From Minisyncoccota bacterium (GTDB lineage Bacteria > Patescibacteriota > Minisyncoccia > Phycocordibacterales > Phycocordibacteraceae): 64,000 nt of DNA. A program made the position numbers and the translations under genes. Shown one piece after another: positions 8,647 to 55,956 of the stretch. The stretch spans positions 93,830-157,829 of the forward strand of contig JALHOO010000001.1 in assembly GCA_022842945.1 (NCBI GenBank), given 5' to 3'. The notes under the pieces were generated by a model. That model made no database searches and was not told where the DNA came from. It saw only the letters and a list, made by a program, of their open reading frames with translations. How positions within the stretch are numbered: the first letter of the stretch is position 1; each line of letters starts with the position of its first letter.

Positions 8647-8663
8647 TCTCTCCACGCGTTTGC

Positions 8664-8699
8664 AAAAGAGCCGGGCACTCCCGGCTCTTTTGCTTTCTT
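8664..8699 (+). terminator. rpmF intrinsic terminator
   Basis: AAAAGAGCCGGG-CACT-CCCGGCTCTTTT followed by GCTTTCTTA. Confidence 0.6.
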
Positions 8700-8767
8700 A
8701 TACACAGCACAGTGCTATAGCGAGATACACTCCTTTACTGCTATGCTGTCCCTACGTTCTTTCCTAT

Positions 8768-9661
8768 ATGGCTAACCGACATCTTGCACGCTCCGTCGTC
8801 CTTCAGACGCTATTCGAGTGGGACACCTCGAATCTCTCTGATGCAGACGCAACCGTTGCGCTCCAGCGTAACGTTGAGGAGTTCGGTGGAGATGATACGG
8901 ATCGGCCCTTTATGGAAACCCTCCTTGCAGGCGTACTCGCTAAGCGCCCTGATCTTGATCTCGTTATAACGAAGGCCGCGCCAGACTGGCCTCTTGAGCG
9001 TATTGCTCCAGTTGATCGCAACATTCTACGTATTGGTCTCTACGAGCTTTTGTTCGCAGACCGCACGCAGGTACCGGCAAAGGTTGCTATTAACGAAGCT
9101 ATTGAGCTCGCGAAGGTATTCGGCGGAGACTCATCCGGCAGGTTTGTGAACGGCGTACTTGGTGCCGTATACAAGGAGCTTGGGGAACCCGGAAAGGAAG
9201 AGACGGGCAAGAAGGAGCGCGTGAAGCGCGAAGACCTTCCAGTTGAAGAGCTCGGAGGTGCCATCGTATACGCGTATCACGAAGGCCAGTACTATCTCGC
9301 ACTCGTACACGACGTATTCGGACACTGGACCCTTTCTAAAGGAAAGATTCCTCAAGGCACAAGCATTGAGGAGGGAACGATAGAGGGTCTTCGAGACGAG
9401 CTTGGTCTTCCGTCCGTCATTAAAGACAAGATTGGCGAGAACGAGTACATCGCAAGCCATCCGGAGAAGGGAAAGATACGCAAGCACGTGTCGTACTTCC
9501 TCGCTGAGGCGCCGTACATGGAGCTCACGCTTGAGAAGAAGGGAGGACTGGACGACGCACGTTGGTTCCGTCTCACGGATATCCTCGAACTCAACTTCTA
9601 CGACGACATGCTTCCTATTGTGACCGAGGCAGTGCAGAAACTCCTCGACAAAGCGCGCTAG
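8768..9661 (+). CDS. nusB: NusB-like antitermination domain fused to a Nudix hydrolase domain
   Basis: N-terminal half LARSVVLQTLFEWD...VDRNILRIGLYELLF is NusB-like. The C-terminal half contains a Nudix-like segment (GKIPQGTSIEEGTIEGLRDELGL). The start is moved to the ATG at 8768 because 8660 overlaps the rpmF terminator. Confidence 0.75.
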   Translation: MANRHLARSVVLQTLFEWDTSNLSDADATVALQRNVEEFGGDDTDRPFMETLLAGVLAKRPDLDLVITKAAPDWPLERIAPVDRNILRIGLYELLFADRTQVPAKVAINEAIELAKVFGGDSSGRFVNGVLGAVYKELGEPGKEETGKKERVKREDLPVEELGGAIVYAYHEGQYYLALVHDVFGHWTLSKGKIPQGTSIEEGTIEGLRDELGLPSVIKDKIGENEYIASHPEKGKIRKHVSYFLAEAPYMELTLEKKGGLDDARWFRLTDILELNFYDDMLPIVTEAVQKLLDKAR

Positions 9662-31440: not shown

Positions 31441-31824
31441 ATGCAGATTGAAATTAAGAAAATTGTAGATAGAGATCTCCTGGAGCAAGAAAGAGCAGTT
31501 CTTGGTGTAGTTTCTGATACTTTCTTAGGAAATTTTGCGATATTCCAAACTCACTCAAACTCATCCGGAACTGTATCAACACAGATAAAAAGAACATATT
31601 GGTTTCCAGATCGGGATGTGAAGGCTGGCGATATAATTGTTATTTATACTAAGTCTGGGAAGAATAAAGTGCGTGACAATGACGATGGTACTCAGTCACA
31701 TTTCTTCTATCTTGGAAAGGATGCGCCAATTTGGAAAGACGATTCCTCAGCACTGGCAATAATTAATATCCTTGAGTGGGACTATAAAACGGCTGATGGA
31801 AAAGGAGGGAGAGAAAAGATTTAG
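31441..31824 (+). CDS. hypothetical protein (127 aa)
   Basis: ATG 4 nt after the upstream stop; low-GC codon usage shared with the island. An alternative GTG start lies at 31417. Confidence 0.45.
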   Translation: MQIEIKKIVDRDLLEQERAVLGVVSDTFLGNFAIFQTHSNSSGTVSTQIKRTYWFPDRDVKAGDIIVIYTKSGKNKVRDNDDGTQSHFFYLGKDAPIWKDDSSALAIINILEWDYKTADGKGGREKI

Positions 31825-31964
31825 ACCACATGGGCTATTTTTAGATTGGTATAAGAAACTTGTTAGTCACCCTTAAATAAGGTGGTCGATCACGCCTGCA
31901 TGGACCTTGCGATCTAACTGAGCAAAATCTAAGCCTTAAATACTGTATATATTCTTACAGTCGG

Positions 31965-31985
31965 GAAGTGGGGTAGAATACTGTG
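31965..31985 (+). promoter_or_regulatory. extended -10-like element (TGgggTAGAAT) upstream of the MmeI-family gene
   Basis: AT-rich 200-nt gap; TGnTAGAAT about 45 nt upstream of the ATG at 32031. Confidence 0.3.
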
Positions 31986-32030
31986 ACAAAGACTTAGTAG
32001 GAATGCTGCCAAAAAGACCCCAAGAAATTT

Positions 32031-34709
32031 ATGATCAATCTAGTAAGCCTACAGGAGGATCTTGAGAATCTCAGTCAGAAATTTTCAAAGCAAACGTTTG
32101 TCTTTGATTTGCTGTCCGTGTATGGACTGCCGAAAAGCACCATCTCTTTACTTTTCAAAAACCCCTCAAAGCTATCGGGAAAGGAAGATCAGATCATTTT
32201 AAAAAACAAGGTGCTTTTTCACATAACCAACTTAGAAGAAGACGAGCACGTCGCTATCGATACTCTACAAAAGGATAAGAACTCATATAAATTCAATCCT
32301 CGATTCATTATCGTTACGGACTTTGCAACATTCTTGGCTGTAGATACAAAAACAAAGGAGACTCTTGATATCCAGATTGGGGATCTCGGCAGACATTACG
32401 CATTTTTCTTGCCGTGGTGTGGCATGGAAAAATCACAGCATGTTAATGAGAACCCTGCTGATATTCGTGCTGCCTACAAAATGGACAAGTTGTATCAGGC
32501 AATTGTTAATGACGATCCAGAATACTATAAGAACAATAGTCACGATTTAAACATATTTCTATCACGGCTTCTTTTCTGTTTCTTCGCCGAAGATACCGGA
32601 ATCTTCCCGAAAGCAGGATTATTCACAAACTCAGTAATTTCTCATACTCATGAAAATGGTGAAGAGTTAGATGCACATTTCTCAACGCTGTTTGATCTGT
32701 TGAACACAAAAGATAGCGACCGGTCAAAGTTTGCATCTCACTTTTTGGAATTCCCATATGTAAATGGGGGTCTTTTTGAAGACAAGATTAAGTTACCTGC
32801 ATTTACTGCTAGTTCACGAAAACTGATTATTGAGTGTGGAAAATTGAATTGGGATTCAATCAATCCTGACATCTTCGGGTCTATGATCCAGGCTGTCGTT
32901 CATCCTGGACAGCGAGAGAATCTCGGAATGCACTACACCTCTGTGCCTAACATAATGAAGGTGATTGAACCGCTCTTTCTTAATGATTTGTACGAAGAAT
33001 TAGAAAGGTCGAAAAATGATCCAAAGAAATTAGAAAATCTTCGTGACAGAGTTTCCAAGATCAAGATATTTGATCCAGCCTGTGGATCAGGTAATTTCCT
33101 CATTATCTCGTACAAGGAGTTATCAAAACTAGAATCAAAAATAGTTGCTTACGCCAAAGCCATTGGGCATGACATGGTGCAGTACTCTGGTGTATCTCTA
33201 AACTCTTTCTACGGAATAGAGATAGATGACTTTGCTCATGAAATTGCCAGACTTTCACTTTGGCTAGCTCAACACCAAATGAACCAGTATTTCGATGGAA
33301 TGTTTGGAATTATGAAAGCAACACTCCCGCTTAAAGAAAGCGGAAAGATTGTTTGTGGTAATGCCACGAGAGTCGATTGGGAGGAGGTCTGTCCTCGTAA
33401 AGATAAGGTTGTAGGAGAACATGAAATATATGTAATTGGTAATCCTCCTTACTACGGGGCAAGAAAGCAAGATGACGAACAGAAAGAAGATATCAATAGA
33501 ATTTTTAAGGGGGTCAAGAATGCGAGCAATCTGGATTATATTTCCTGCTGGTTTCTTCTTGGCAAGAACTATATTCAAGGCACAAAGATCAAGCTGGCTT
33601 TTGTTTCAACAAATTCAATTTGCCAGGGCGAGCAGGTCTCTATTCTATGGCCACTAATTTTAAAAGACCAAATCGAAATAGGTTTCGCGTACCAGTCATT
33701 TAAATGGAAGAACAGTGCCAAGGGTAATGCCGGAGTCACTTGCGTTATTGTTGGATTAAGAGCTGAAGCAAAAAATCATAAATATATTTTTAGTGGTCAA
33801 ATTAAGATTTCAGCCAAAAATATATCACCGTATCTTGTAGATACTGATAATCTTTTTGTGCAAAAAAGAAGTAAACCGCTATCACAGATTCCAGAGATGT
33901 GCTTTGGAAGTATGCCTAATGATGGTGGATATCTTTTGATTGACCAGAATGAGTATGTAGAACTTAAAAGTAATAATCCTACTGTTCTTAGTTTTATAAA
34001 ACGATGCTACGGTGGCCAGGAATTTATCAAGGGAATTGTCAGGTATTGTATTTGGATCAGTGATAAAGAAGTTGACAGTGCTATGAAGATTGAATTTATT
34101 AAAAATAGAGTCGAGCTAGTTCAATCATATCGAAGTAAGAGTGACAGGGAAGCAACTAGAAAATTGTCTGCAAAGCCTTACAAATTTGGTGAGATTAGAC
34201 ACCTTGATACCAATTCAATCATTGTTCCTCGAGTTTCGTCCGAATTGCGTGATTACATTCCTGTAGGTTTTCTGACCAAGAACGATATCATCACTGATTC
34301 TGCCCAGGTTATATATAACGCCGAGCCTTATATTTTTGCTGTACTAAATTCACACATGCACATGACCTGGGTGCGTGCTGTTGGAGGAAAATTGAAGACT
34401 GACTTGAGGTACTCGTCCGCACTTTGTTACAACACCTTCCCATTTCCAGAGATTACCCCAAAGCAAAAGGACTCGCTTGCTACTCATGTCTATAATATTC
34501 TCGAAGAGCGCGAGAAATATCCCAATAAAACGATGGCAGACCTGTATGATCCAGTAAAGATGCCGGATAGCTTGAGGGAAGCTCATAAATATTTAGACCT
34601 CGCCATAGACCAAATATATCGAAACAAACCCTTTGAAAGTGATGAAGATCGGTTGGCTCATTTGTTCAAATTCTACGAAGAGATGATTACTAGAGAAACC
34701 AACGGATAA
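32031..34709 (+). CDS. MmeI-family (Type IIL / ISP-like) N6-adenine DNA methyltransferase with C-terminal target-recognition domain and an N-terminal nuclease-like domain of uncertain activity
   Basis: Motif I FDPACGSGNFLI and motif IV NPPY (VIGNPPYYG). MmeI-family signatures RLLFCFFAEDTGIF, FPYVNGGLF, HYTSVPNIMKVIEPLF, FVSTNSICQGEQVSILWPLIL, RYSSALCYNTFPF and the ADLYDP..MP..L..AH..LD C-terminal helix. Confidence 0.85.
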   Translation: MINLVSLQEDLENLSQKFSKQTFVFDLLSVYGLPKSTISLLFKNPSKLSGKEDQIILKNKVLFHITNLEEDEHVAIDTLQKDKNSYKFNPRFIIVTDFATFLAVDTKTKETLDIQIGDLGRHYAFFLPWCGMEKSQHVNENPADIRAAYKMDKLYQAIVNDDPEYYKNNSHDLNIFLSRLLFCFFAEDTGIFPKAGLFTNSVISHTHENGEELDAHFSTLFDLLNTKDSDRSKFASHFLEFPYVNGGLFEDKIKLPAFTASSRKLIIECGKLNWDSINPDIFGSMIQAVVHPGQRENLGMHYTSVPNIMKVIEPLFLNDLYEELERSKNDPKKLENLRDRVSKIKIFDPACGSGNFLIISYKELSKLESKIVAYAKAIGHDMVQYSGVSLNSFYGIEIDDFAHEIARLSLWLAQHQMNQYFDGMFGIMKATLPLKESGKIVCGNATRVDWEEVCPRKDKVVGEHEIYVIGNPPYYGARKQDDEQKEDINRIFKGVKNASNLDYISCWFLLGKNYIQGTKIKLAFVSTNSICQGEQVSILWPLILKDQIEIGFAYQSFKWKNSAKGNAGVTCVIVGLRAEAKNHKYIFSGQIKISAKNISPYLVDTDNLFVQKRSKPLSQIPEMCFGSMPNDGGYLLIDQNEYVELKSNNPTVLSFIKRCYGGQEFIKGIVRYCIWISDKEVDSAMKIEFIKNRVELVQSYRSKSDREATRKLSAKPYKFGEIRHLDTNSIIVPRVSSELRDYIPVGFLTKNDIITDSAQVIYNAEPYIFAVLNSHMHMTWVRAVGGKLKTDLRYSSALCYNTFPFPEITPKQKDSLATHVYNILEEREKYPNKTMADLYDPVKMPDSLREAHKYLDLAIDQIYRNKPFESDEDRLAHLFKFYEEMITRETNG

Positions 34710-34713
34710 TTTT

Positions 34714-36651
34714 ATGAAAACCATTCAAGTCGCCGAAGCAACATACGAACAGACGGGGCAAAGTACCAAGCTTAACGAGCTTGGTATGCGTGAAATGCAA
34801 GCCAAAGCATTCGAAAAAAAGGGTGCTCAGTACCTACTTTTGAAAGCCCCTCCAGCATCTGGAAAGTCCAGAGCATTGATGTTCCTTGCTTTAGATAAAC
34901 TTGCCAATCAAGGCATCAAAAAAGTCATTGTTGCCGTTCCCGAGAGATCTATCGGTGGATCTTTTAGTGAGACCAATCTAACTGAGAGTGGTTTCTTTGC
35001 AGATTGGAAACCAAATGATGACTACAACCTTTGTACTCCTGGTCTAGATAATGCAAAAGGCAAGGTCGAAGCGTTTAAGAATTTTGTGAATAACGATGAG
35101 AAGATCCTCATCTGCACTCATTCAACGCTTCGCTTCGCATGTGAACAAATTGAAGACTCAAAATTCAATGATATGCTCATTGCGATTGACGAATTCCATC
35201 ATGTGTCTGCTGACAAAGAGAGCAGCATTTTAGGGCGCGTTTTGCACGGAATAATGACTAATTCAAACGCGCATATTATTGCGATGACAGGGTCATACTT
35301 CAGGGGAGATGGTGTTGCTGTTCTGTTGCCACAGGATGAGGCAAAGTTTCAGAAAGTGACATACAACTACTACCAGCAGTTGAATGGCTACACCTATTTA
35401 AAGACCCTAGGTATCGGGTACCATTTTTACCAAGGCAGATACACATCAGCGATTACTGAGGTGTTGGATACAAACAAGAAGACGATTCTACATATTCCGA
35501 ACGTGAACTCCGGGGAGTCCACAAAGGATAAGCTCAATGAAGTCGATCTGATCTTGGATATCATCGGAGAAGTAGATCATCAGGATCATGAGACTGGTGT
35601 TATCTATGTAAGACGTGACGGAGACGGAAAGATGCTTAAGGTCGCAAACCTTGTCGACGATTCAGTCGATCGAGACAAGATATCAAACTACCTCCGTACC
35701 ATGAAAAACGAGGATGATATGGATATCATCATTGCTTTGGGTATGGCAAAAGAAGGTTTTGACTGGCCGTACTGCGAACATGCACTGACTGTCGGCTATC
35801 GAAGCTCTCTCACAGAGATCATCCAGATCATCGGCCGCTGCACCCGTGATAGTGCTAACAAGACTCATGCTCAGTTTACAAACCTCATCGCCCAGCCTGA
35901 CGCAAAGGACGGTGAGGTTAAGGTGTCCGTAAACAACATGCTGAAGGCGATTACCTGCTCTCTACTTATGGAGCAAGTCATGGCCCCGCACTACAACTTC
36001 AAGCCTCGATTCCCCAATGACGACAATTCTTTTACTCCGGGCGAGATTAAAGTAAATGGATTTAAGGCACCAAGCACCGAACGGGTGAGAGAAATCATTG
36101 AATCAGATATCAACGATCTCAAGGCATCTATTCTTCAGGACGACCAAATGATTAAGGCGTTGCCTGGAAATGTTGATCCTGAGGTAATAAACAAGGTGAT
36201 GATCCCAAAGATTATCCAAATGAAGTATCCAGATCTTAGCGATCTTGAGGTTGAGGAAGTCCGCCAGCATGTCGTTGTTGACTCTGTAATTAAGAACGGA
36301 GAAATTAAGATTGTAGGAGACAAGAAGTTTGTCAGAATGGCGGGGCAGTTTGTGAATATCGACGATCTTAATATTGATCTCATTGATAGCATCAACCCCT
36401 TCCAGGAAGCCTTTGAAATACTTTCAAAATCCGTGACAACGGGCATCCTCAAGGTCATTCAGGACACAATCGACTCTTCCCGAATCGAGATGACACCAGA
36501 GGAAGTTAAGATTCTATGGCCTAAGGCAAAAGAGTTTACAATCCAGACAGGTCGGAAGCCTGAAGTTACTTCGTCCGATCCGCTTGAGAAAAGGCTAGCC
36601 GAAGCGGTGCTCTATCTGAAGAAACTCAAGGCCGAGCAAATCCAAAATTAA
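34714..36651 (+). CDS. SF2 DExH-box helicase (restriction Res/HsdR-like ATPase core, no nuclease domain)
   Basis: Motif I APPASGKS, motif II DEFH, motif III TGS, motif VI QIIGRCTR. Located 4 nt after the methyltransferase stop. Confidence 0.8.
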   Translation: MKTIQVAEATYEQTGQSTKLNELGMREMQAKAFEKKGAQYLLLKAPPASGKSRALMFLALDKLANQGIKKVIVAVPERSIGGSFSETNLTESGFFADWKPNDDYNLCTPGLDNAKGKVEAFKNFVNNDEKILICTHSTLRFACEQIEDSKFNDMLIAIDEFHHVSADKESSILGRVLHGIMTNSNAHIIAMTGSYFRGDGVAVLLPQDEAKFQKVTYNYYQQLNGYTYLKTLGIGYHFYQGRYTSAITEVLDTNKKTILHIPNVNSGESTKDKLNEVDLILDIIGEVDHQDHETGVIYVRRDGDGKMLKVANLVDDSVDRDKISNYLRTMKNEDDMDIIIALGMAKEGFDWPYCEHALTVGYRSSLTEIIQIIGRCTRDSANKTHAQFTNLIAQPDAKDGEVKVSVNNMLKAITCSLLMEQVMAPHYNFKPRFPNDDNSFTPGEIKVNGFKAPSTERVREIIESDINDLKASILQDDQMIKALPGNVDPEVINKVMIPKIIQMKYPDLSDLEVEEVRQHVVVDSVIKNGEIKIVGDKKFVRMAGQFVNIDDLNIDLIDSINPFQEAFEILSKSVTTGILKVIQDTIDSSRIEMTPEEVKILWPKAKEFTIQTGRKPEVTSSDPLEKRLAEAVLYLKKLKAEQIQN

Positions 36652-36652
36652 T

Positions 36653-37801
36653 ATGGATAGAAACGATTTACTAGATTTGCTAAATGATGACGACCTAGGA
36701 CTTCTCGATATAGAGAAGAAGTCTGTTTCCGTTACGCCAGATGATCGGCTATCAGAATCATTTATGGAAATAAATGAGTTTTTCTTGGCGCATAATAACG
36801 AACCAAAGAGTGGCGGAGATATCCATGAACACAAGCTTGCATCAAGACTTAAGCACATCAGAGAGAATAAAGAGCAAAGAGACTTCCTCAGTAAATACGA
36901 TACTCATAGTCTATTGAAGACTGATGCAAAGGATCTCGATACCGTAAGTGATATTTTTGCAGACGACGATTTGGATCTCCTTTCGCTTGAGGATAGTTCT
37001 GTTTTTAACATAAAGAACGTTCCAGAAATCAGACAAGATCGCTCCAACCCCGACTTCGTTGCACAGAGAGAGATTTGTACTGATTTCGATAAGTATGAGT
37101 ATCTGTTTGCACAGGTTCAAAGGGACCTAAAGAGCGGAACAAAGAAGCTGGCTAGCTTTGTTGAAAGTGAGATGAAAGAAGGCGACTTTTTTGTACTTAG
37201 TGGAGTGCTCATATATCTCGAAAAAATTGATGATCCATACCGAGGTAACAGTCAAAAAATAAACAGGCGAACTCGTTGTATTTATGAGAACGGGACTGAA
37301 TCAAGCGTGCTTCTTCGATCGCTTGGGAAAAGACTTTCTGATGCAGGGTATGCCATAAAGGGTAATTCAGAGATGGTGGCTATTGAAGATGGAGATTCTG
37401 AGACAGGCTATATCTATGTACTTAAGTCCCTAAGTGAGAATCCAAGGATCGCAACTACTAAAAACCTTTTCAAGATTGGTTTCTCAACTACTCGTGTCGA
37501 AGAGCGTATAAGGAACGCAGAACAGGACCCTACGTATCTAATGGCTCCAGTTTCTATTGTCGCTACTTACCGATGTTTCAACATGAATCCTCAGCGGTTC
37601 GAAAGGCTGATACACCGTTTCTTCAGTGAGTCATGTCTGGATCTTGAAATCACCGACAAGGATGGGAGAAGTTATGTTCCAAAGGAGTGGTTCGTAGCAC
37701 CAATAACGGTAATCGGAAATACCATCGAACTAATCATCAAGGGAGAGATCGTCAATTATTCTTATGACAAAGATACTGAGTCAATTGAAAAGATTAGATA
37801 A
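36653..37801 (+). CDS. protein with an acidic N-terminal tandem motif and a C-terminal T5orf172/GIY-YIG-superfamily nuclease-like domain
   Basis: GYIYVLKS...KIGFSTTRVEERIRN...ERLIHRFF...EWFVAP matches the T5orf172 (MUG113) pattern. DDDLGLLDIEKKSVSV and DDDLDLLSLEDSSVFN repeats. Begins 1 nt after the helicase stop. Confidence 0.7.
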   Translation: MDRNDLLDLLNDDDLGLLDIEKKSVSVTPDDRLSESFMEINEFFLAHNNEPKSGGDIHEHKLASRLKHIRENKEQRDFLSKYDTHSLLKTDAKDLDTVSDIFADDDLDLLSLEDSSVFNIKNVPEIRQDRSNPDFVAQREICTDFDKYEYLFAQVQRDLKSGTKKLASFVESEMKEGDFFVLSGVLIYLEKIDDPYRGNSQKINRRTRCIYENGTESSVLLRSLGKRLSDAGYAIKGNSEMVAIEDGDSETGYIYVLKSLSENPRIATTKNLFKIGFSTTRVEERIRNAEQDPTYLMAPVSIVATYRCFNMNPQRFERLIHRFFSESCLDLEITDKDGRSYVPKEWFVAPITVIGNTIELIIKGEIVNYSYDKDTESIEKIR

Positions 37802-37809
37802 TACTTCTC

Positions 37810-38259
37810 TCAAATAGGATTCACAATTTTATTGAAATGCCTAGACGGCACTGGTGTAACCGAAAGCCTCGACCCTTTTTGTAAAATCATCATCCCTAAA
37901 GAAGCATCGGCACGTATATCCGATAGGGTAACGGGCACATCAAACTTCTTTACGAACGCAATATCAACCAAGTCCCATATTGGCCTTGCTTCAGTTGCAC
38001 GCTTGTCGTAGTAGTCGCTCTTCGGATCAAACTGCGTTGGGTCTGGATACGCTTCCGTAACAACCTTTGCAATCCCATACACTCCAGGAACCTTGCAGTT
38101 GGAATGATAGAAGAGAACCTCGTCGCCAACCCGCATCTCACGCATATAGTTCCTCGCTTGAAAGTTCCGCACGCCATTCCATGACGTCTTTCTATCCTTC
38201 TTTAAATGGTCTATCCCGTAGCTCTCGGGCTCTGACTTCATAAGCCAATACTGCTTCAT
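37810..38259 (-). CDS. EVE (PUA-like/YTH-like) domain protein
   Basis: MKQYWLMKSEPESY...WNGVRNFQARNYMREMRVGDEVLFYHS is the canonical EVE N-terminus. Confidence 0.8.
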   Translation of the reverse strand: MKQYWLMKSEPESYGIDHLKKDRKTSWNGVRNFQARNYMREMRVGDEVLFYHSNCKVPGVYGIAKVVTEAYPDPTQFDPKSDYYDKRATEARPIWDLVDIAFVKKFDVPVTLSDIRADASLGMMILQKGSRLSVTPVPSRHFNKIVNPI

Positions 38260-51422: not shown

Positions 51423-52112
51423 TTGATCATTCATACAGACAAAGGAATTTTCATGACACGAACCGCTTCGCGTCCCAAACTACACCTGAGGCCTATCGAG
51501 GAGCAGCTCAACTCGGTGCTGAAGCTCAGTACCGTGTTCCATCCAGAGCATGCGCTCAACTGGGCAGAGACAAGCGCAACAATCGTCCCTCCCGGTTATG
51601 CCGGATTCCTGGCTGTGCCGCTCTTTAGTAGCTTCGGATTCCTGCGGATTCCGGTGGCGAATGAGGCGTGGGGCAAGAAGACTGGGTGGAAGCTTCACAC
51701 TAGTGTTCCTGGTCTCAAGGGAGAGCACAACAAGCATCGTGCTGACGATTTCGTCGTGAGCCAACGCACCCTCGACGCGTACAAGAGACTCGATGCGCAA
51801 CAGGCAGTCCTTAATGGGCAGTTCGATGCCAATCGACTTCGTGTCTTCCCGGTTCGCTTTAGTGAGGAGGCGGAACCCGAGCTTCTCGAGAACGAGTTCC
51901 ATCTCGATCTCGGTTCGCTCATCTGGTTTCTGGCTACGCACTCGGAATGGAAAGCTCTGCAAGGAGGTCTCCTTCTGCGGTGTCTCGGCGAGACGCATGT
52001 GTCGCATGCCAGTATCCTCGTTGGGTACCAGCACATGGAACGAGTACTGTCGGTGCCCACTTCCTCCATGAAGACCCACGGGCTTGTCGTCATCGGAAGG
52101 GCCCCGGCCTGA
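51423..52112 (+). CDS. hypothetical protein (229 aa)
   Basis: High-GC ORF with no motif recognised. Confidence 0.4.
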   Translation: MIIHTDKGIFMTRTASRPKLHLRPIEEQLNSVLKLSTVFHPEHALNWAETSATIVPPGYAGFLAVPLFSSFGFLRIPVANEAWGKKTGWKLHTSVPGLKGEHNKHRADDFVVSQRTLDAYKRLDAQQAVLNGQFDANRLRVFPVRFSEEAEPELLENEFHLDLGSLIWFLATHSEWKALQGGLLLRCLGETHVSHASILVGYQHMERVLSVPTSSMKTHGLVVIGRAPA

Positions 52113-52148
52113 AAAGAAGCCGTCCACGCGAACGTGGACGGCTTTTCT

Positions 52149-52847
52149 CTATCCCTTCTTCGTCTGAAGCTCCCTAATAGAGCGGTTCCGGTGGATGAGT
52201 TCGTCGTTTCGGATGGACTCAAAGAGTTCGTACTCGCACCGCGCCGTACGGCCGTAGAAGACGAGAAACTCCGAGTACACGGGTGTGTCGCGAAGACGTT
52301 CGCCGTTCTCAACAAGGAACTGCTGGTACTGGTTGTACGCGTGGTTCTCGAAGAGGTAGTTAAGCTCAAGCGCTGAGCGACGCGAGAACATGTAGAGAAG
52401 GTAAATGGTCCAGAAATAGAAGAGCGCAAACACAAGCGGAATGAATACATGGCGGAAGAAGCCTTCGCACTTAAGCCGCTTAACTATTTGAGAGATAACA
52501 ACCACATGCATCGTCTCGTTGTCCTGAGCCTCGCGGGAGAAGGTGCTGGTCTTTGTGAGTTCAATGGCGCGCTCTTCGTTTGAGTAGAGTCCGGTGAGGA
52601 GGGTGTAGGAGGCAACTTCCCAAGACTGGTAGGGAATGCGAGCAATAACCTCTATAGCTTTGAACTTCTCGTAGCTTGGCTTCTTTCCGTACACTAGGGT
52701 GCCGGACCCAACCAATAGGCACCCGAGGACGCGTGCAAGAAATCCTGGACGATAGTTGTCATAGGCGCGCGCATACTCAGCGCGAAGCACAGGATCGTTC
52801 AATTCTTTAACGAGTGCCTCGTGAGCGTTAAACTGTTCTTCGTTCAT
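52149..52847 (-). CDS. alternative oxidase / PTOX-like di-iron carboxylate quinol oxidase (putative)
   Basis: Four Glu/His motifs in the AOX order: IEVIARIP, NETMH, FENHAYNQY, RNDELIH. Membrane-associated hydrophobic segment between motifs 2 and 3. Confidence 0.6.
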   Translation of the reverse strand: MNEEQFNAHEALVKELNDPVLRAEYARAYDNYRPGFLARVLGCLLVGSGTLVYGKKPSYEKFKAIEVIARIPYQSWEVASYTLLTGLYSNEERAIELTKTSTFSREAQDNETMHVVVISQIVKRLKCEGFFRHVFIPLVFALFYFWTIYLLYMFSRRSALELNYLFENHAYNQYQQFLVENGERLRDTPVYSEFLVFYGRTARCEYELFESIRNDELIHRNRSIRELQTKKG

Positions 52848-52866
52848 ACGAATAATCTAGCATGCG

Positions 52867-54522
52867 CTATACGCTCTTGAGCATATCGCGCTCAATGTCT
52901 GCGAACGTACCGTGTACTTTCTTGCCTGGATTAAAGATGTCGGTTGGGTCGAATATGTCTTTGGTCTTCTCAAACAGAGACACCATCTCGTTCCCGAAGA
53001 GCTGAGGCAGATACGGCGTACGGATGATGCCGTCGTTATGCTCGCCGGTGGTGGTACCGCCGTATTTAATAACGAGATCGTACACGCGAGGAGAAAGCTC
53101 AAGGATAACGTCGCGTACCGTGGGATCGGAAAGATCCATAAGAGGAATGATATGGAAGTTCCCGTTCCCGATGTGTCCGGCAATGGTGTAGAGGAGATCA
53201 TACTCCGCAAGAAGACTATTAAGTTCCGGCATGAACTCAGGATATGAGTCAGGGGAGACAACGAAGTCGTCGATAAACGGGGCGGCATAGAGACCCTTTG
53301 CGTTTTTGCGGAGAAGCGCAAAACTCTCGCGACGCACCTTCCAGTATTTCGCTGAAGCTTTCTCGTCTCGCTTTATGCTCATAGGAAGACCAAGGGGCAT
53401 GAGTGCCGCCTTGGCAGCCGTTGCCTTAAACAGTGCCTCCTCATGGGTGTCTTCTGAGAACTCAGCCATAAGAACAAGCTTTGGTACGCCGCCGCGCAGC
53501 ACCATGCCAACCTCAGGAAGGAAGGAGAATCCAAGCTTCGCCGCTTCAACCACACCCATTTGTGAGAGCATCTGTGGGAGGAACTTAATAGCGAGTTCAA
53601 AGGTATGGTCGTCATAAGACTCAAAGCTCTCTGGATTGAAGGGAAGTACCTTCCGCACAATCTCAGGAAGAACCGCAATGTCGTCGAGGAAGATAACGAG
53701 CATGGAGCGGAATCCCTGCTCGCGTACCAGGCTGAGCTTCATCTTCGTGGTAAGGGCAAGCGTACCCTGTGCGCCACAGATAAGCTTCGCAAGGTTCATA
53801 CTGCCGTGTTCCTCCATAACGTCCCAGAGTGCGTACCCGGCTGAGTTCTTGGATACCTTCGGACGTGCCTTCTCGATGAGGGTCTTGTTCTCTGTTATGA
53901 GTGCGCGGAGGTCTCTATATATCCGGCCCTCCAAAGTATCAAGGGCAACCTTTGCGTCCACCTCTTCTTTTGTGAGGGATTTGAATACCGCCTGAGTCCC
54001 GTCTGCAAGCACTACATCTACTTCCTCTACATACTTGCGTGTCTTTCCGTACTCGAGCGTTCGTTCGCCTCCCGAGTCGTTGTTAAGAAGCCCGCCCATG
54101 GCAGCTATTTCGCGGGAAGCCGGGAAGGAGGGAAGTATCTGGCCGCCTTCAGCAAGCGTGGCCTTCTCGAAGTCGCGATAGTAGACGCCAGGCTCGGCTA
54201 CGGCATAGCCCTCGCGCACCTCAATAACGTGGTTCATGTACTTCGTGAACACCGCAACCACCGAGTCCGTAAGCGATCCTCCTGACATACAGGTGCCGGC
54301 AGAGCGTCCGGTAACAGACGCTCTGATACCGTCCTTCTTTGCGCCTGCGATAGTCCGCACCAACGCAGACACATCATCTGCATTCTTGGGATACACCACG
54401 ATCTCCGGGGTACGCGAGAAGATACTGGTATCGCGCGAGAAAAGTGCTCGCGTCTTCGTGTCGTTGAGTACGTCTCCTTTAATGCTTGCACGTATGCGTG
54501 TACTAAGTTCAGTGTCAGCCAT
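52867..54522 (-). CDS. FAD-linked oxidase (GlcD/D-lactate dehydrogenase / PCMH-type FAD-binding family)
   Basis: N-terminal FAD-binding PCMH domain plus C-terminal substrate domain; 551 aa. Confidence 0.85.
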   Translation of the reverse strand: MADTELSTRIRASIKGDVLNDTKTRALFSRDTSIFSRTPEIVVYPKNADDVSALVRTIAGAKKDGIRASVTGRSAGTCMSGGSLTDSVVAVFTKYMNHVIEVREGYAVAEPGVYYRDFEKATLAEGGQILPSFPASREIAAMGGLLNNDSGGERTLEYGKTRKYVEEVDVVLADGTQAVFKSLTKEEVDAKVALDTLEGRIYRDLRALITENKTLIEKARPKVSKNSAGYALWDVMEEHGSMNLAKLICGAQGTLALTTKMKLSLVREQGFRSMLVIFLDDIAVLPEIVRKVLPFNPESFESYDDHTFELAIKFLPQMLSQMGVVEAAKLGFSFLPEVGMVLRGGVPKLVLMAEFSEDTHEEALFKATAAKAALMPLGLPMSIKRDEKASAKYWKVRRESFALLRKNAKGLYAAPFIDDFVVSPDSYPEFMPELNSLLAEYDLLYTIAGHIGNGNFHIIPLMDLSDPTVRDVILELSPRVYDLVIKYGGTTTGEHNDGIIRTPYLPQLFGNEMVSLFEKTKDIFDPTDIFNPGKKVHGTFADIERDMLKSV

Positions 54523-54549
54523 TACGCTCTAGTATACCGTGTGATAGCT

Positions 54550-54990
54550 CTAGGGATGGTGTCCCGCGACACGGAAGTTCACATGGAGATTGAAGAGATA
54601 GTTCGCAAACCCAACTACACACGCAACCAGCACGCGCGCAACTAAGTAGTGAAGCGCAAAGAAGGCAACGAGGAAGGTAACGGCGCCTGTAATAAGGAGC
54701 GCGCCTCCTCCTGCAAACAGGATGAAGTACACATACCCGTGATGTATGCGGCGCTCGGTACCTTTGAATACAAACGTGCGTGAAAGCAGATAGTTAATCG
54801 AGACTGCTATAAGGAAGCCCAGGGCGGTGGAGATTTGGTAGGGCACCCCAAACAGCTCCGTCATGATCCAGATAAGCACAAGATCGAACGCAAATGTTGA
54901 TCCGCCAACAAGGGCATACTTCAGAAACCTTTTATAGGTGGGATTCTGCAGATGCTTCATGGTTCGTATGATAGCCCAGAAAAGGGTCAA
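54550..54990 (-). CDS. GtrA-family membrane protein
   Basis: RFLKYALVGGSTFAFDLVLIWIMTELFG is the GtrA signature; four TM helices. Confidence 0.7.
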   Translation of the reverse strand: MTLFWAIIRTMKHLQNPTYKRFLKYALVGGSTFAFDLVLIWIMTELFGVPYQISTALGFLIAVSINYLLSRTFVFKGTERRIHHGYVYFILFAGGGALLITGAVTFLVAFFALHYLVARVLVACVVGFANYLFNLHVNFRVAGHHP

Positions 54991-55008
54991 TGGTATACTG
55001 CCTCTATT

Positions 55009-55956
55009 ATGGAAGATTCAGTACCCGCACTCCGCATTGAAGACCTTAAGAAACTGTACGCAAAGGATAAGAAGGTAGCGGGGACTGAAGCACTCAAGGG
55101 GGTATCCCTCACTATTCAAAAGGGAGAGTTCTTTGGACTTCTTGGACCCAATGGTGCCGGAAAGACGAGCCTCATTGGTATAGCTTCGGGGCTTGTGGTG
55201 AAGACTTCAGGAACGGTTGAAGTTATGGGTTCTCCTATAGACACGGATCCCGTAACGGCAAAGACCCACATAGGTCTTGTGCCGCAGGAACTCAACTTCG
55301 ATATCTTCGAGACTCCACTCAACATCATCGTTAATCAGGCCGGATACTACGGCATCCCGCGCGCAACCGCTCTTCCGCGTGCAGAGCAGATTCTTAAGGA
55401 CCTTGGCCTCTGGGACAAGAGGGACGTGGCCTCGCAGAAACTCTCAGGAGGCATGAAGCGCCGCCTTCTCATTGCGCGCGCTCTTATTCACGAGCCACGT
55501 ATCCTTCTCCTCGACGAGCCAACAGCGGGAGTGGATGTCGAACTCCGTCGCGGCATGTGGGAGTACTTGAGGAAGATCAACGCGGCAGGCACCACTATTG
55601 TTCTCACGACCCACTATCTTGAAGAAGCAGAACAGCTCTGCAAGCGCGTCGCCATCATCAACAAGGGCGAGATTATCGAACAGGGAAGCGTGAAAGAACT
55701 TATAGGAAAGCTCAGCTTCGCGACCCTGCTTCTGGACACTGTAGAGCCCGTAACACCTGCACAGATTGCACTCATGCGAGATTTGCCTGTTACCGTCATT
55801 GACGACAACACGCTTGAACTTACGCTTAAGCCAAACGAGATCGTAAACGACTCTATCCGTCTCATGACGAAGATTGGTATCAGCATCAAGAACATCCGGA
55901 ACTCCGGAAGCCGTCTTGAGGAAGTGTTCGTTAATCTTATTGAAAAAGGCTCCTAG
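55009..55956 (+). CDS. ABC transporter ATP-binding protein (ABC-2 type)
   Basis: Walker A GPNGAGKTS, signature LSGGMKRRL, Walker B LLLDEPT. Confidence 0.9.
   Translation: MEDSVPALRIEDLKKLYAKDKKVAGTEALKGVSLTIQKGEFFGLLGPNGAGKTSLIGIASGLVVKTSGTVEVMGSPIDTDPVTAKTHIGLVPQELNFDIFETPLNIIVNQAGYYGIPRATALPRAEQILKDLGLWDKRDVASQKLSGGMKRRLLIARALIHEPRILLLDEPTAGVDVELRRGMWEYLRKINAAGTTIVLTTHYLEEAEQLCKRVAIINKGEIIEQGSVKELIGKLSFATLLLDTVEPVTPAQIALMRDLPVTVIDDNTLELTLKPNEIVNDSIRLMTKIGISIKNIRNSGSRLEEVFVNLIEKGS

Follow-up and report, generated by a model that had tools for sequence, protein, structure and literature searches.

A divergent AOX/PTOX-like di-iron protein and a putative stand-alone D-2-hydroxyacid dehydrogenase encoded side by side in Paceibacteria

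Within a 64-kb stretch of DNA from a Paceibacteria-type Patescibacterium (contig JALHOO010000001.1; the whole stretch is called the window below), three genes on the minus strand encode, in order of transcription, a GtrA-family membrane protein, a 551-aa flavin adenine dinucleotide (FAD) enzyme and a 232-aa di-iron protein (Table 1). The 232-aa product almost certainly belongs to the superfamily of the alternative oxidase (AOX) and the plastid terminal oxidase (PTOX), and the 551-aa product is very probably a D-2-hydroxyacid dehydrogenase. Together they may constitute a coupled chain in which electrons leave the dehydrogenase, pass through scavenged quinone and reach O2 by way of the AOX-like protein, a proposal that we place just short of an even bet. 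An earlier reading of this DNA (the original prediction) had already recognized three co-directional open reading frames (ORFs), which we confirm, with gaps of 20-27 nt; the larger gap is indeed 27 nt, whereas the smaller measures 19 nt.

The order of di-iron motifs typical of AOX and PTOX, which the original prediction had noticed in the 232-aa protein, is borne out by Pfam matches, residue invariance, hhalign comparison and fold searches, all of which agree. The PF01786 (AOX) profile matches residues 58-222 over profile positions 52-210 of 216, and its score of 33.8 bits (E 3.6e-8) exceeds the gathering cut-off of 22.7. This was the sole Pfam match to the protein at E<=0.1, and neither COQ7 nor rubrerythrin gave a match at that level. 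The four motifs comprise E66, N110-E111-T-M-H114, E167 and D215-E216-L-I-H219. In a broadened alignment of 39 sequences with identities down to 20% (A3), the invariant positions besides the start Met are E66, N110, E111, H114, E167, Y174, D215, E216 and H219, a degree of motif invariance that far exceeds chance, and 37 of the 39 aligned relatives match PF01786 themselves. The six predicted iron ligands (E66, E111, H114, E167, E216 and H219) align motif for motif with E123, E162/H165, E213 and E266/H269 of the trypanosome alternative oxidase (TAO), whose iron ligands are E123, E162, H165, E213, E266 and H269 (PMC9246349). Candidate second-sphere residues are N110 and D215, which stand immediately before the first and second ExxH motifs, respectively, and Y174, located seven residues past the third Glu. 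We take these three residues to correspond to N161, D265 and Y220 of TAO, which are positions typical of AOX.

Comparison of the 232-aa family with PTOX-type proteins by hhalign gave a probability of 99.7% (E 2e-25, 176 columns, 30% identity), and the broadened profile retrieved TAO from the PDB at E ~1e-12 with all four motifs aligned. Neither a single-sequence phmmer search nor the narrow family profile (A2) retrieved any AOX from the PDB, and therefore the Paceibacterial clade of AOX-like proteins must be highly divergent. The AlphaFold2 (AF2) model of the protein (pLDDT 84.7, pTM 0.85) is a four-helix bundle that agrees with the solved AOX structure. Specifically, the top 12 Foldseek matches in the PDB are all trypanosome AOX (3VV9 and related entries; probability 0.95-1.0, TM ~0.55 on the query), and TAO is the sole significant structural match, whereas bacterioferritin and ferritin-like folds reach probabilities of merely 0.1-0.2. 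Kyte-Doolittle peaks at residues ~34-54 and ~130-155 mark two hydrophobic helices that would fit a monotopic association with the membrane if they lie in its plane, although they may instead span it. The protein is almost certainly a divergent member of the AOX/PTOX family and probably a monotopic membrane di-iron enzyme, and its predicted activity is that of a quinol:O2 oxidoreductase.

The protein resembles PTOX and TAO in some features and differs from them in others. PTOX (IMMUTANS) and its algal relatives have the same di-iron ligand set with the same spacing, and share with the 232-aa protein the first motif (xEVIARIPY versus LETVARVPYF), the NExxH, ExHAxxxY and DExxH motifs, and a hydrophobic helix between motifs 2 and 3. 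Furthermore, the residue four positions after the Glu of motif 1 is Arg in the 232-aa protein and in PTOX, whereas it is Gly in AOX. In contrast to PTOX, which is ~300-375 aa in length, the protein described here lacks a transit peptide and the long insertion before the fourth helix, is located in a separate clade of a neighbour-joining tree, and is encoded by a host that has no photosynthetic plastoquinone pool. Identity to TAO is just 15-20% and the N-terminal regions of the two proteins differ; the Paceibacterial clade has a distinctive conserved N terminus of ~55 residues. The nearest sequence neighbours outside Patescibacteria are other bacterial AOX-like proteins, such as a Paludibacteraceae protein named ‘alternative oxidase’ (HQB69433.1). 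These score ~85-110 bits against the family profile, have ~25-30% identity and a similar length (220-290 aa), and appear to be uncharacterized.

Relatives of the 232-aa protein form 1,229 clusters at 90% identity, and nearly all of those with names come from Patescibacteria, Paceibacterota or Parcubacteria. The family is thus common in Paceibacteria, and the original prediction was mistaken in regarding an AOX-like protein as unusual in genomes of this type. Some relatives already carry the names ‘alternative oxidase’ or ‘ubiquinol oxidase’ from NCBI or JGI. The 13 GTDB species representatives that were recovered are all Patescibacteria or unclassified metagenome-assembled genomes of uncultured bacteria. 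A profile search of 1.8 billion representatives yielded 406 matches, just 15 of which have E <= 1e-30, indicating that the Paceibacterial clade is tight and well conserved; other bacterial AOX-like proteins form the next tier and PTOX-type proteins the one after that.

A look-up of names for the distant cluster representatives returned a single one, from Paludibacteraceae. In a Paludibacteraceae locus (L026 3635-10660), the AOX-like gene is convergent with an Na+-NQR operon and has genes for Fur and rubredoxin nearby; a second distant homologue resides in a cluster (L030 504-5788) of genes for Fur, three rubrerythrins, rubredoxin and MsrAB; and the gene context of a third is uninformative. These contexts differ from that in the window, and no adjoining FAD dehydrogenase gene was seen in them. 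Because of the Na+-NQR and oxidative-stress neighbourhoods, a quinone-linked role in O2 defence would fit the AOX-like proteins of anaerobic bacteria. Our literature search for AOX-like genes in oxidative-stress clusters of anaerobes returned nothing specific.

The middle gene of the locus encodes a FAD enzyme of the PCMH/VAO type, in accord with the original prediction. Its product matches PF01565 (FAD_binding_4) with 84.6 bits and PF02913 (FAD-oxidase_C) with 133.9 bits. The NCBIfam model for YdiJ gives 253 bits over profile positions 25-540 of 1018, and GlcD models match more weakly. The score is far under all NCBIfam equivalog cut-offs, including that of the YdiJ equivalog NF049975 (1350 bits), the C-terminal half of which has no counterpart in the protein. 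E. coli YdiJ, a D-2-hydroxyglutarate dehydrogenase, is 28% identical over 539 aa (E 3e-51), and the full length of the 551-aa enzyme aligns with YdiJ residues 29-538. YdiJ also carries a GlpC-like Fe-S domain (PMC9504171), and it is this C-terminal GlpC-like 4Fe-4S half that the 551-aa enzyme lacks.

Five putative catalytic residues (R397, H450, H457, E494 and H495) are invariant in 22 homologues; in alignments with mouse LDHD and with E. coli YdiJ they coincide with the GH-x5-FH and GEH motifs. The enzyme therefore has in common with mouse LDHD a substrate-binding Arg and a His-His-Glu(-His) metal site; in the mouse protein the aligned residues are presumably R347, H398, H405, E442 and H443. 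The predicted fold (pLDDT 74.9) leads to the same family. The best Foldseek matches are LctD, mouse LDHD, an arthropod D-lactate dehydrogenase and human D2HGDH (E ~1e-24 to 1e-19), and the TM score on D-lactate and D-2-hydroxyglutarate dehydrogenase targets is ~0.8. The catalytic residues and the fold together argue that the protein is a D-2-hydroxyacid dehydrogenase rather than a polyprenyl-sugar oxidase. By its sequence it is a stand-alone, metal-dependent enzyme of the GlcD/LDHD/YdiJ-N-terminal type that is most likely soluble or peripheral. D-lactate is the likeliest substrate, with D-2-hydroxyglutarate and glycolate as the alternatives. Identities as an alkyl-DHAP synthase-like or vanillyl-alcohol-oxidase-like protein were also considered, and were rejected because the matches were weak and limited to the FAD-binding domain or ranked lower in the fold search.

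These two assignments suggest how the proteins could work together. The dehydrogenase would oxidize a D-2-hydroxyacid, probably D-lactate, to the corresponding 2-oxoacid and deliver two electrons to membrane quinone, which the cell probably scavenges together with host lipids. The di-iron centre of the AOX-like protein would then re-oxidize the quinol and reduce O2 to water with no proton pumping, and the net result would be a two-protein oxygen sink that requires neither haem nor copper. With electrons flowing in the direction that we infer, the cell might regenerate oxidized cofactor, recover pyruvate or 2-oxoglutarate and protect its fermentative metabolism from O2; such a chain could serve to remove oxygen, to re-oxidize the products of fermentation and to keep the redox state in balance. 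A path from the FAD enzyme through quinone and an AOX-type protein to O2 was part of the original prediction, and it stands as a reasonable model once the polyprenyl-sugar chemistry attached to it, which fails (see below), is removed.

A precedent for a terminal oxidase in such a host is provided by cytochrome bo3 operons of Saccharibacteria, Doudnabacteria and Parcubacteria, which likewise occur in Candidate Phyla Radiation (CPR) genomes that lack a respiratory chain and quinone synthesis, and which have been read as serving O2 scavenging with scavenged quinone. CPR genomes with this quinol oxidase lack quinone biosynthesis, and scavenging of quinone has been proposed (PMC8407418, PMC6031116); therefore the absence of quinone biosynthesis would not refute a quinol oxidase here. 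The two oxidases are otherwise very different. Cytochrome bo3 is an unrelated multi-subunit haem-copper proton pump that was probably acquired by horizontal gene transfer, whereas the 232-aa protein is a predicted haem-free, non-pumping di-iron enzyme with one subunit that seems to have been passed down vertically within Paceibacteria. Gene order hints at a connection between YdiJ-type dehydrogenases and the quinone pool in E. coli K-12 (L031 3223-6686), where ydiJ overlaps menI, the gene for the 1,4-dihydroxy-2-naphthoyl-CoA hydrolase of menaquinone synthesis, by 4 nt. The literature describes the physiological electron acceptor of this enzyme as unknown (PMC9504171).

The arrangement of the two genes was compared among 19 distinct oxidase loci, comprising the window, L005-L017, one of L018 and L019, one of L021 and L022, L023, L024 and L025, among which L010 and L025 have the same arrangement. 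In 13 of the 19, a FAD gene lies 5′ of the AOX-like gene and at most one gene away, and among GTDB loci this adjacency spans AOX identities from 88% to ~66%. A spacing of 19-22 nt between the two genes, with no terminator, is retained in several loci and persists in L024 despite the replacement of the genes upstream. Indeed, the pair remains intact while the region upstream of it has been remodelled repeatedly. Local GC content is 0.52, equal to the background of the window and the genome, and therefore the three-gene locus is not a recent island. The FAD and AOX-like genes are, in addition, conserved to the same degree as the housekeeping genes on either side, and the two observations together suggest that the pair has been inherited vertically under selection.

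Other results weigh against a coupled chain. All 13 adjacency-positive loci belong to one clade in which an entire block of ~12 kb (HisKA, BacA, ABC-2/ABC, GtrA, FAD, AOX, RRM, DUF1360, MTS, bPH, HisRS) is syntenic, and for this reason the adjacency is suggestive but is not independent evidence; the three-gene order of GtrA, FAD and AOX genes is not kept in distant relatives independently of this synteny. In the remaining six of the 19 loci, no FAD gene is found within ~2-8 kb on either side of the AOX-like gene, which has as its neighbours SerRS/FtsQ/UvrC/Ddl, GlmS or a small PF01050 cupin. L020 has the FAD gene, with an unrelated 258-aa gene in the position of the oxidase (an hhalign probability of 0.3% rules out a diverged AOX), and an ORF on the opposite strand separates the FAD and AOX-like genes in L005 and L007. 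No genes for quinone biosynthesis, quinone reductase or quinone uptake are present in the 64-kb window, the remainder of which is devoted to housekeeping. Furthermore, the 551-aa dehydrogenase has no GlpC-like Fe-S domain, a type of domain thought to relay electrons to the membrane, and no obvious membrane anchor, such that direct reduction of quinone by this enzyme is an assumption. The FAD-AOX adjacency could instead be an inherited gene order rather than a sign of functional coupling. The AOX-like protein would then be a general O2-scavenging quinol oxidase, and the dehydrogenase would separately feed O2 (generating H2O2) or some other acceptor. The synteny of the pair-bearing clade, which reaches from the ABC exporter as far as HisRS, the six oxidases with no nearby FAD gene, the absence of an oxidase in L020 and the split pairs in L005 and L007 all favour this explanation. 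So do the name ‘oxygen-dependent FAD-containing oxidoreductase’ that one source gives to a homologue of the FAD enzyme, and the location of distant AOX-like genes in oxidative-stress clusters that have no FAD dehydrogenase. We nevertheless consider it rather unlikely, as the terminator-free spacing of 19-22 nt has survived upstream replacement in L024 and the pair has stayed together through repeated remodelling of its surroundings. Moreover, characterized enzymes of the GlcD/LDHD/D2HGDH type are dehydrogenases rather than efficient oxidases.

An improbable variant dispenses with quinone altogether, with reduced flavoprotein or a small redox protein feeding the di-iron protein directly in a D-2-hydroxyacid:O2 oxidoreductase system that makes water. 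Patescibacteria reportedly lack electron transport chains and quinone biosynthesis, and the missing Fe-S domain of the dehydrogenase, the conserved N-terminal ~55 residues peculiar to the Paceibacterial clade and the rubredoxin genes that adjoin distant relatives are all compatible with such a route. However, all characterized AOX and PTOX members of which we know use quinol, the protein has kept the hydrophobic helices suggestive of embedding in the membrane, and the two proteins are never fused among the homologues listed. A non-oxidase function for the 232-aa protein, as a di-iron hydroxylase or another enzyme resembling COQ7, MiaE or rubrerythrin, is very unlikely. The E...ExxH...E...ExxH pattern is common to several di-iron families, and weak COQ7 matches occur in four of the 39 relatives (best E 3.8e-5). 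By comparison, AOX is the only Pfam match to the protein and is matched by nearly all of its relatives, the Tyr that follows the third Glu is invariant, as are the residues (Asn and Asp) before the ExxH motifs, and the fold search yields TAO alone. The original prediction had singled out rubrerythrin and MiaE as the competitors that could overturn the assignment, and no rival di-iron family outscored AOX. Identities as COQ7, rubrerythrin or ferritin were rejected on the basis of the Pfam scan, the fold search and the Pfam matches of the relatives. Least credible of all is the model first put forward for the locus, in which a DprE1-like enzyme associated with GtrA oxidizes a polyprenyl-phosphate sugar and is itself re-oxidized via quinone and the AOX-like enzyme. 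The GtrA gene does lie 27 nt upstream with no terminator between, and the FAD_binding_4 domain superfamily is common to DprE1 and the 551-aa enzyme. However, the DprE1 model, with a cut-off of 500 bits, gives the enzyme 17.1 bits and covers only residues 41-180, the FAD-binding domain; no DprE1 structure is found within the top 50 fold matches; and the enzyme has the catalytic set of a 2-hydroxyacid dehydrogenase, with the fold to match. In L005, L006, L012, L013 and L018, moreover, unrelated genes spanning 1-3 kb come between GtrA and the FAD gene, and L024 has no GtrA. The DprE1 analogy fails, and the linkage of GtrA to the FAD gene is loose.

The function of GtrA is probably tied to a divergent ABC-2 exporter, not to the redox pair, although the gene is possibly co-transcribed with the FAD gene. 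Residues 24-137 of the longest ORF match PF04138 over profile positions 1-115 of 117 (70.7 bits against a cut-off of 26.1). Translation probably begins at the ATG at 54960, which gives a length of 136 aa, in agreement with homologues of 132-139 aa. Genes inserted between GtrA and the FAD gene in relatives include TerC/DUF475, PGI, ROK kinase, a cupin, two GH130 phosphorylases and PMM. GtrA is always divergent from the ABC-2 exporter gene and often near BacA, which suggests a role in the export of envelope glycans; BacA, ABC-2 and ABC genes are also neighbours in L020-L023. If the ABC ATPase gene is taken to start at 55009, as the 315-aa gene called in L001 suggests, it is separated from the divergent GtrA gene by ~48 nt (window positions 54961-55008), whereas the coordinates of the longest ORFs make the two seem to overlap.

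Genes of sugar catabolism have been inserted repeatedly just 5′ of the FAD-AOX pair, namely those for PGI, ROK kinase, GH130 phosphorylases, phosphomannomutase (PMM) and a mannose-6-phosphate isomerase cupin. In some Paceibacteria the FAD dehydrogenase itself has an N-terminal HAD/PMM fusion (PF08282/PF03332) and a length of ~808 aa (P0388, P0390 and P0400). This fusion is present in several assemblies, including L018 5001-7427 and L019 4657-7083, and is accompanied in the L018/L019 cluster by genes for GtrA, a PF01050 cupin and two GH130 proteins and by the AOX-like gene. The cluster looks like a β-mannoside phosphorylase pathway that has been inserted into the locus. In one Paceibacterial lineage, represented by L010 (7651-8708) and L025 (5651-6693), the AOX-like gene overlaps a 117-aa PF01050 cupin gene by 4 nt, and this replaces the adjacency with the FAD gene. 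The cupin is of the mannose-6-phosphate isomerase C-terminal type, and one of the same type is located upstream in L018. The insertions and the PMM-dehydrogenase fusion weakly suggest that the dehydrogenase acts at the end of sugar fermentation.

The features of the locus are listed in Table 1. No terminator-like sites were found in either internal gap. A GC-rich hairpin with T-runs on either side lies 3′ of the stop codon of the AOX-like gene and is a probable bidirectional intrinsic terminator. A scan of the minus strand for sigma-70 promoters gave nothing useful, and the consensus may not fit CPR promoters. The ORF that converges on the AOX-like gene (229 aa; window positions 51423-52112, plus strand) matches nothing in Pfam or NCBIfam. 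Of the loci that were checked, just those of the closest relatives (L001-L004 and L007) contain it; in the others, its place is taken by different genes.

Table 1. Coordinates of features at the GtrA, FAD dehydrogenase and AOX-like locus (window positions)
Feature	Position	Strand	Evidence or remark
AOX/PTOX-superfamily di-iron protein, 232 aa	52149..52847	-	PF01786, invariant ligands, hhalign, AF2/Foldseek
Putative stand-alone FAD-dependent D-2-hydroxyacid dehydrogenase, 551 aa	52867..54522	-	PF01565 and PF02913, YdiJ model, LDHD alignment, Foldseek
GtrA-family small membrane protein	54550..54990	-	PF04138
Spacer from FAD-gene stop to AOX-like start, 19 nt	52848..52866	-	No terminator
Spacer from GtrA stop to FAD-gene start, 27 nt	54523..54549	-	No terminator
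Hairpin GCCGTCCACG-ttcg-CGTGGACGGC with flanking A/T runs	~52111..52146		Between AOX-like gene and convergent 229-aa ORF

Two further features of the window lie apart from this locus. A low-GC island at positions 31500-38000 (0.38-0.43 against a background of 0.52-0.56), situated between a sigma-70 gene and an S49 peptidase gene, carries ORFs at 32031-34709, 34714-36651 and 36653-37801. The island encodes a complete MmeI-family type IIL restriction-modification enzyme, in which all five MmeI domains are present, together with a ResIII/DEAD helicase and a protein that has a T5orf172/MUG113 domain, and it is probably a horizontally acquired defence island. The ORF at 8660-9661 encodes an unusual fusion of a NusB domain to a NUDIX hydrolase domain, the latter at the C terminus.

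Our literature search for AOX or PTOX in Parcubacteria, Patescibacteria or CPR returned incidental mentions only and no discussion of the Patescibacterial family. A phylogeny of Naegleria AOX includes a single CPR match, which was read there as a transfer from Proteobacteria, and literature from 2023, 2025 and 2026 on oxygen adaptation in Patescibacteria and on the phylum does not mention an AOX-type oxidase. Although the names of individual proteins are already in databases, what is new here is a divergent, short AOX/PTOX clade in hosts that have no respiratory chain, habitually paired with a stand-alone dehydrogenase resembling the N-terminal part of YdiJ.

Much of the diversity of bacteria belongs to Patescibacteria (CPR), which the literature portrays as fermenters in which respiration is ancestrally absent. 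Oxygen reductases were reported in 0.6% of their single-cell genomes by a survey that covered haem-copper and bd oxidases only (PMC7507113). CPR organisms are thought to scavenge haem and not to make it (PMC6031116), and an oxidase of the AOX/PTOX type, which needs neither haem nor copper, would suit such organisms. It is conceivable, if still doubtful, that much of Paceibacteria, a group seen as strictly fermentative and devoid of oxygen reductases, carries a vertically inherited, haem-free, two-protein O2-reducing chain that operates with quinone stolen from the host or possibly with none. If this is true, surveys limited to haem-copper and bd oxidases would have underestimated the use of O2 by the Candidate Phyla Radiation. 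An active AOX-like oxidase would also make the scavenging of host quinone directly testable, and would offer a simple account of how these bacteria tolerate or use the oxygen of oxic groundwater, soil and activated sludge.

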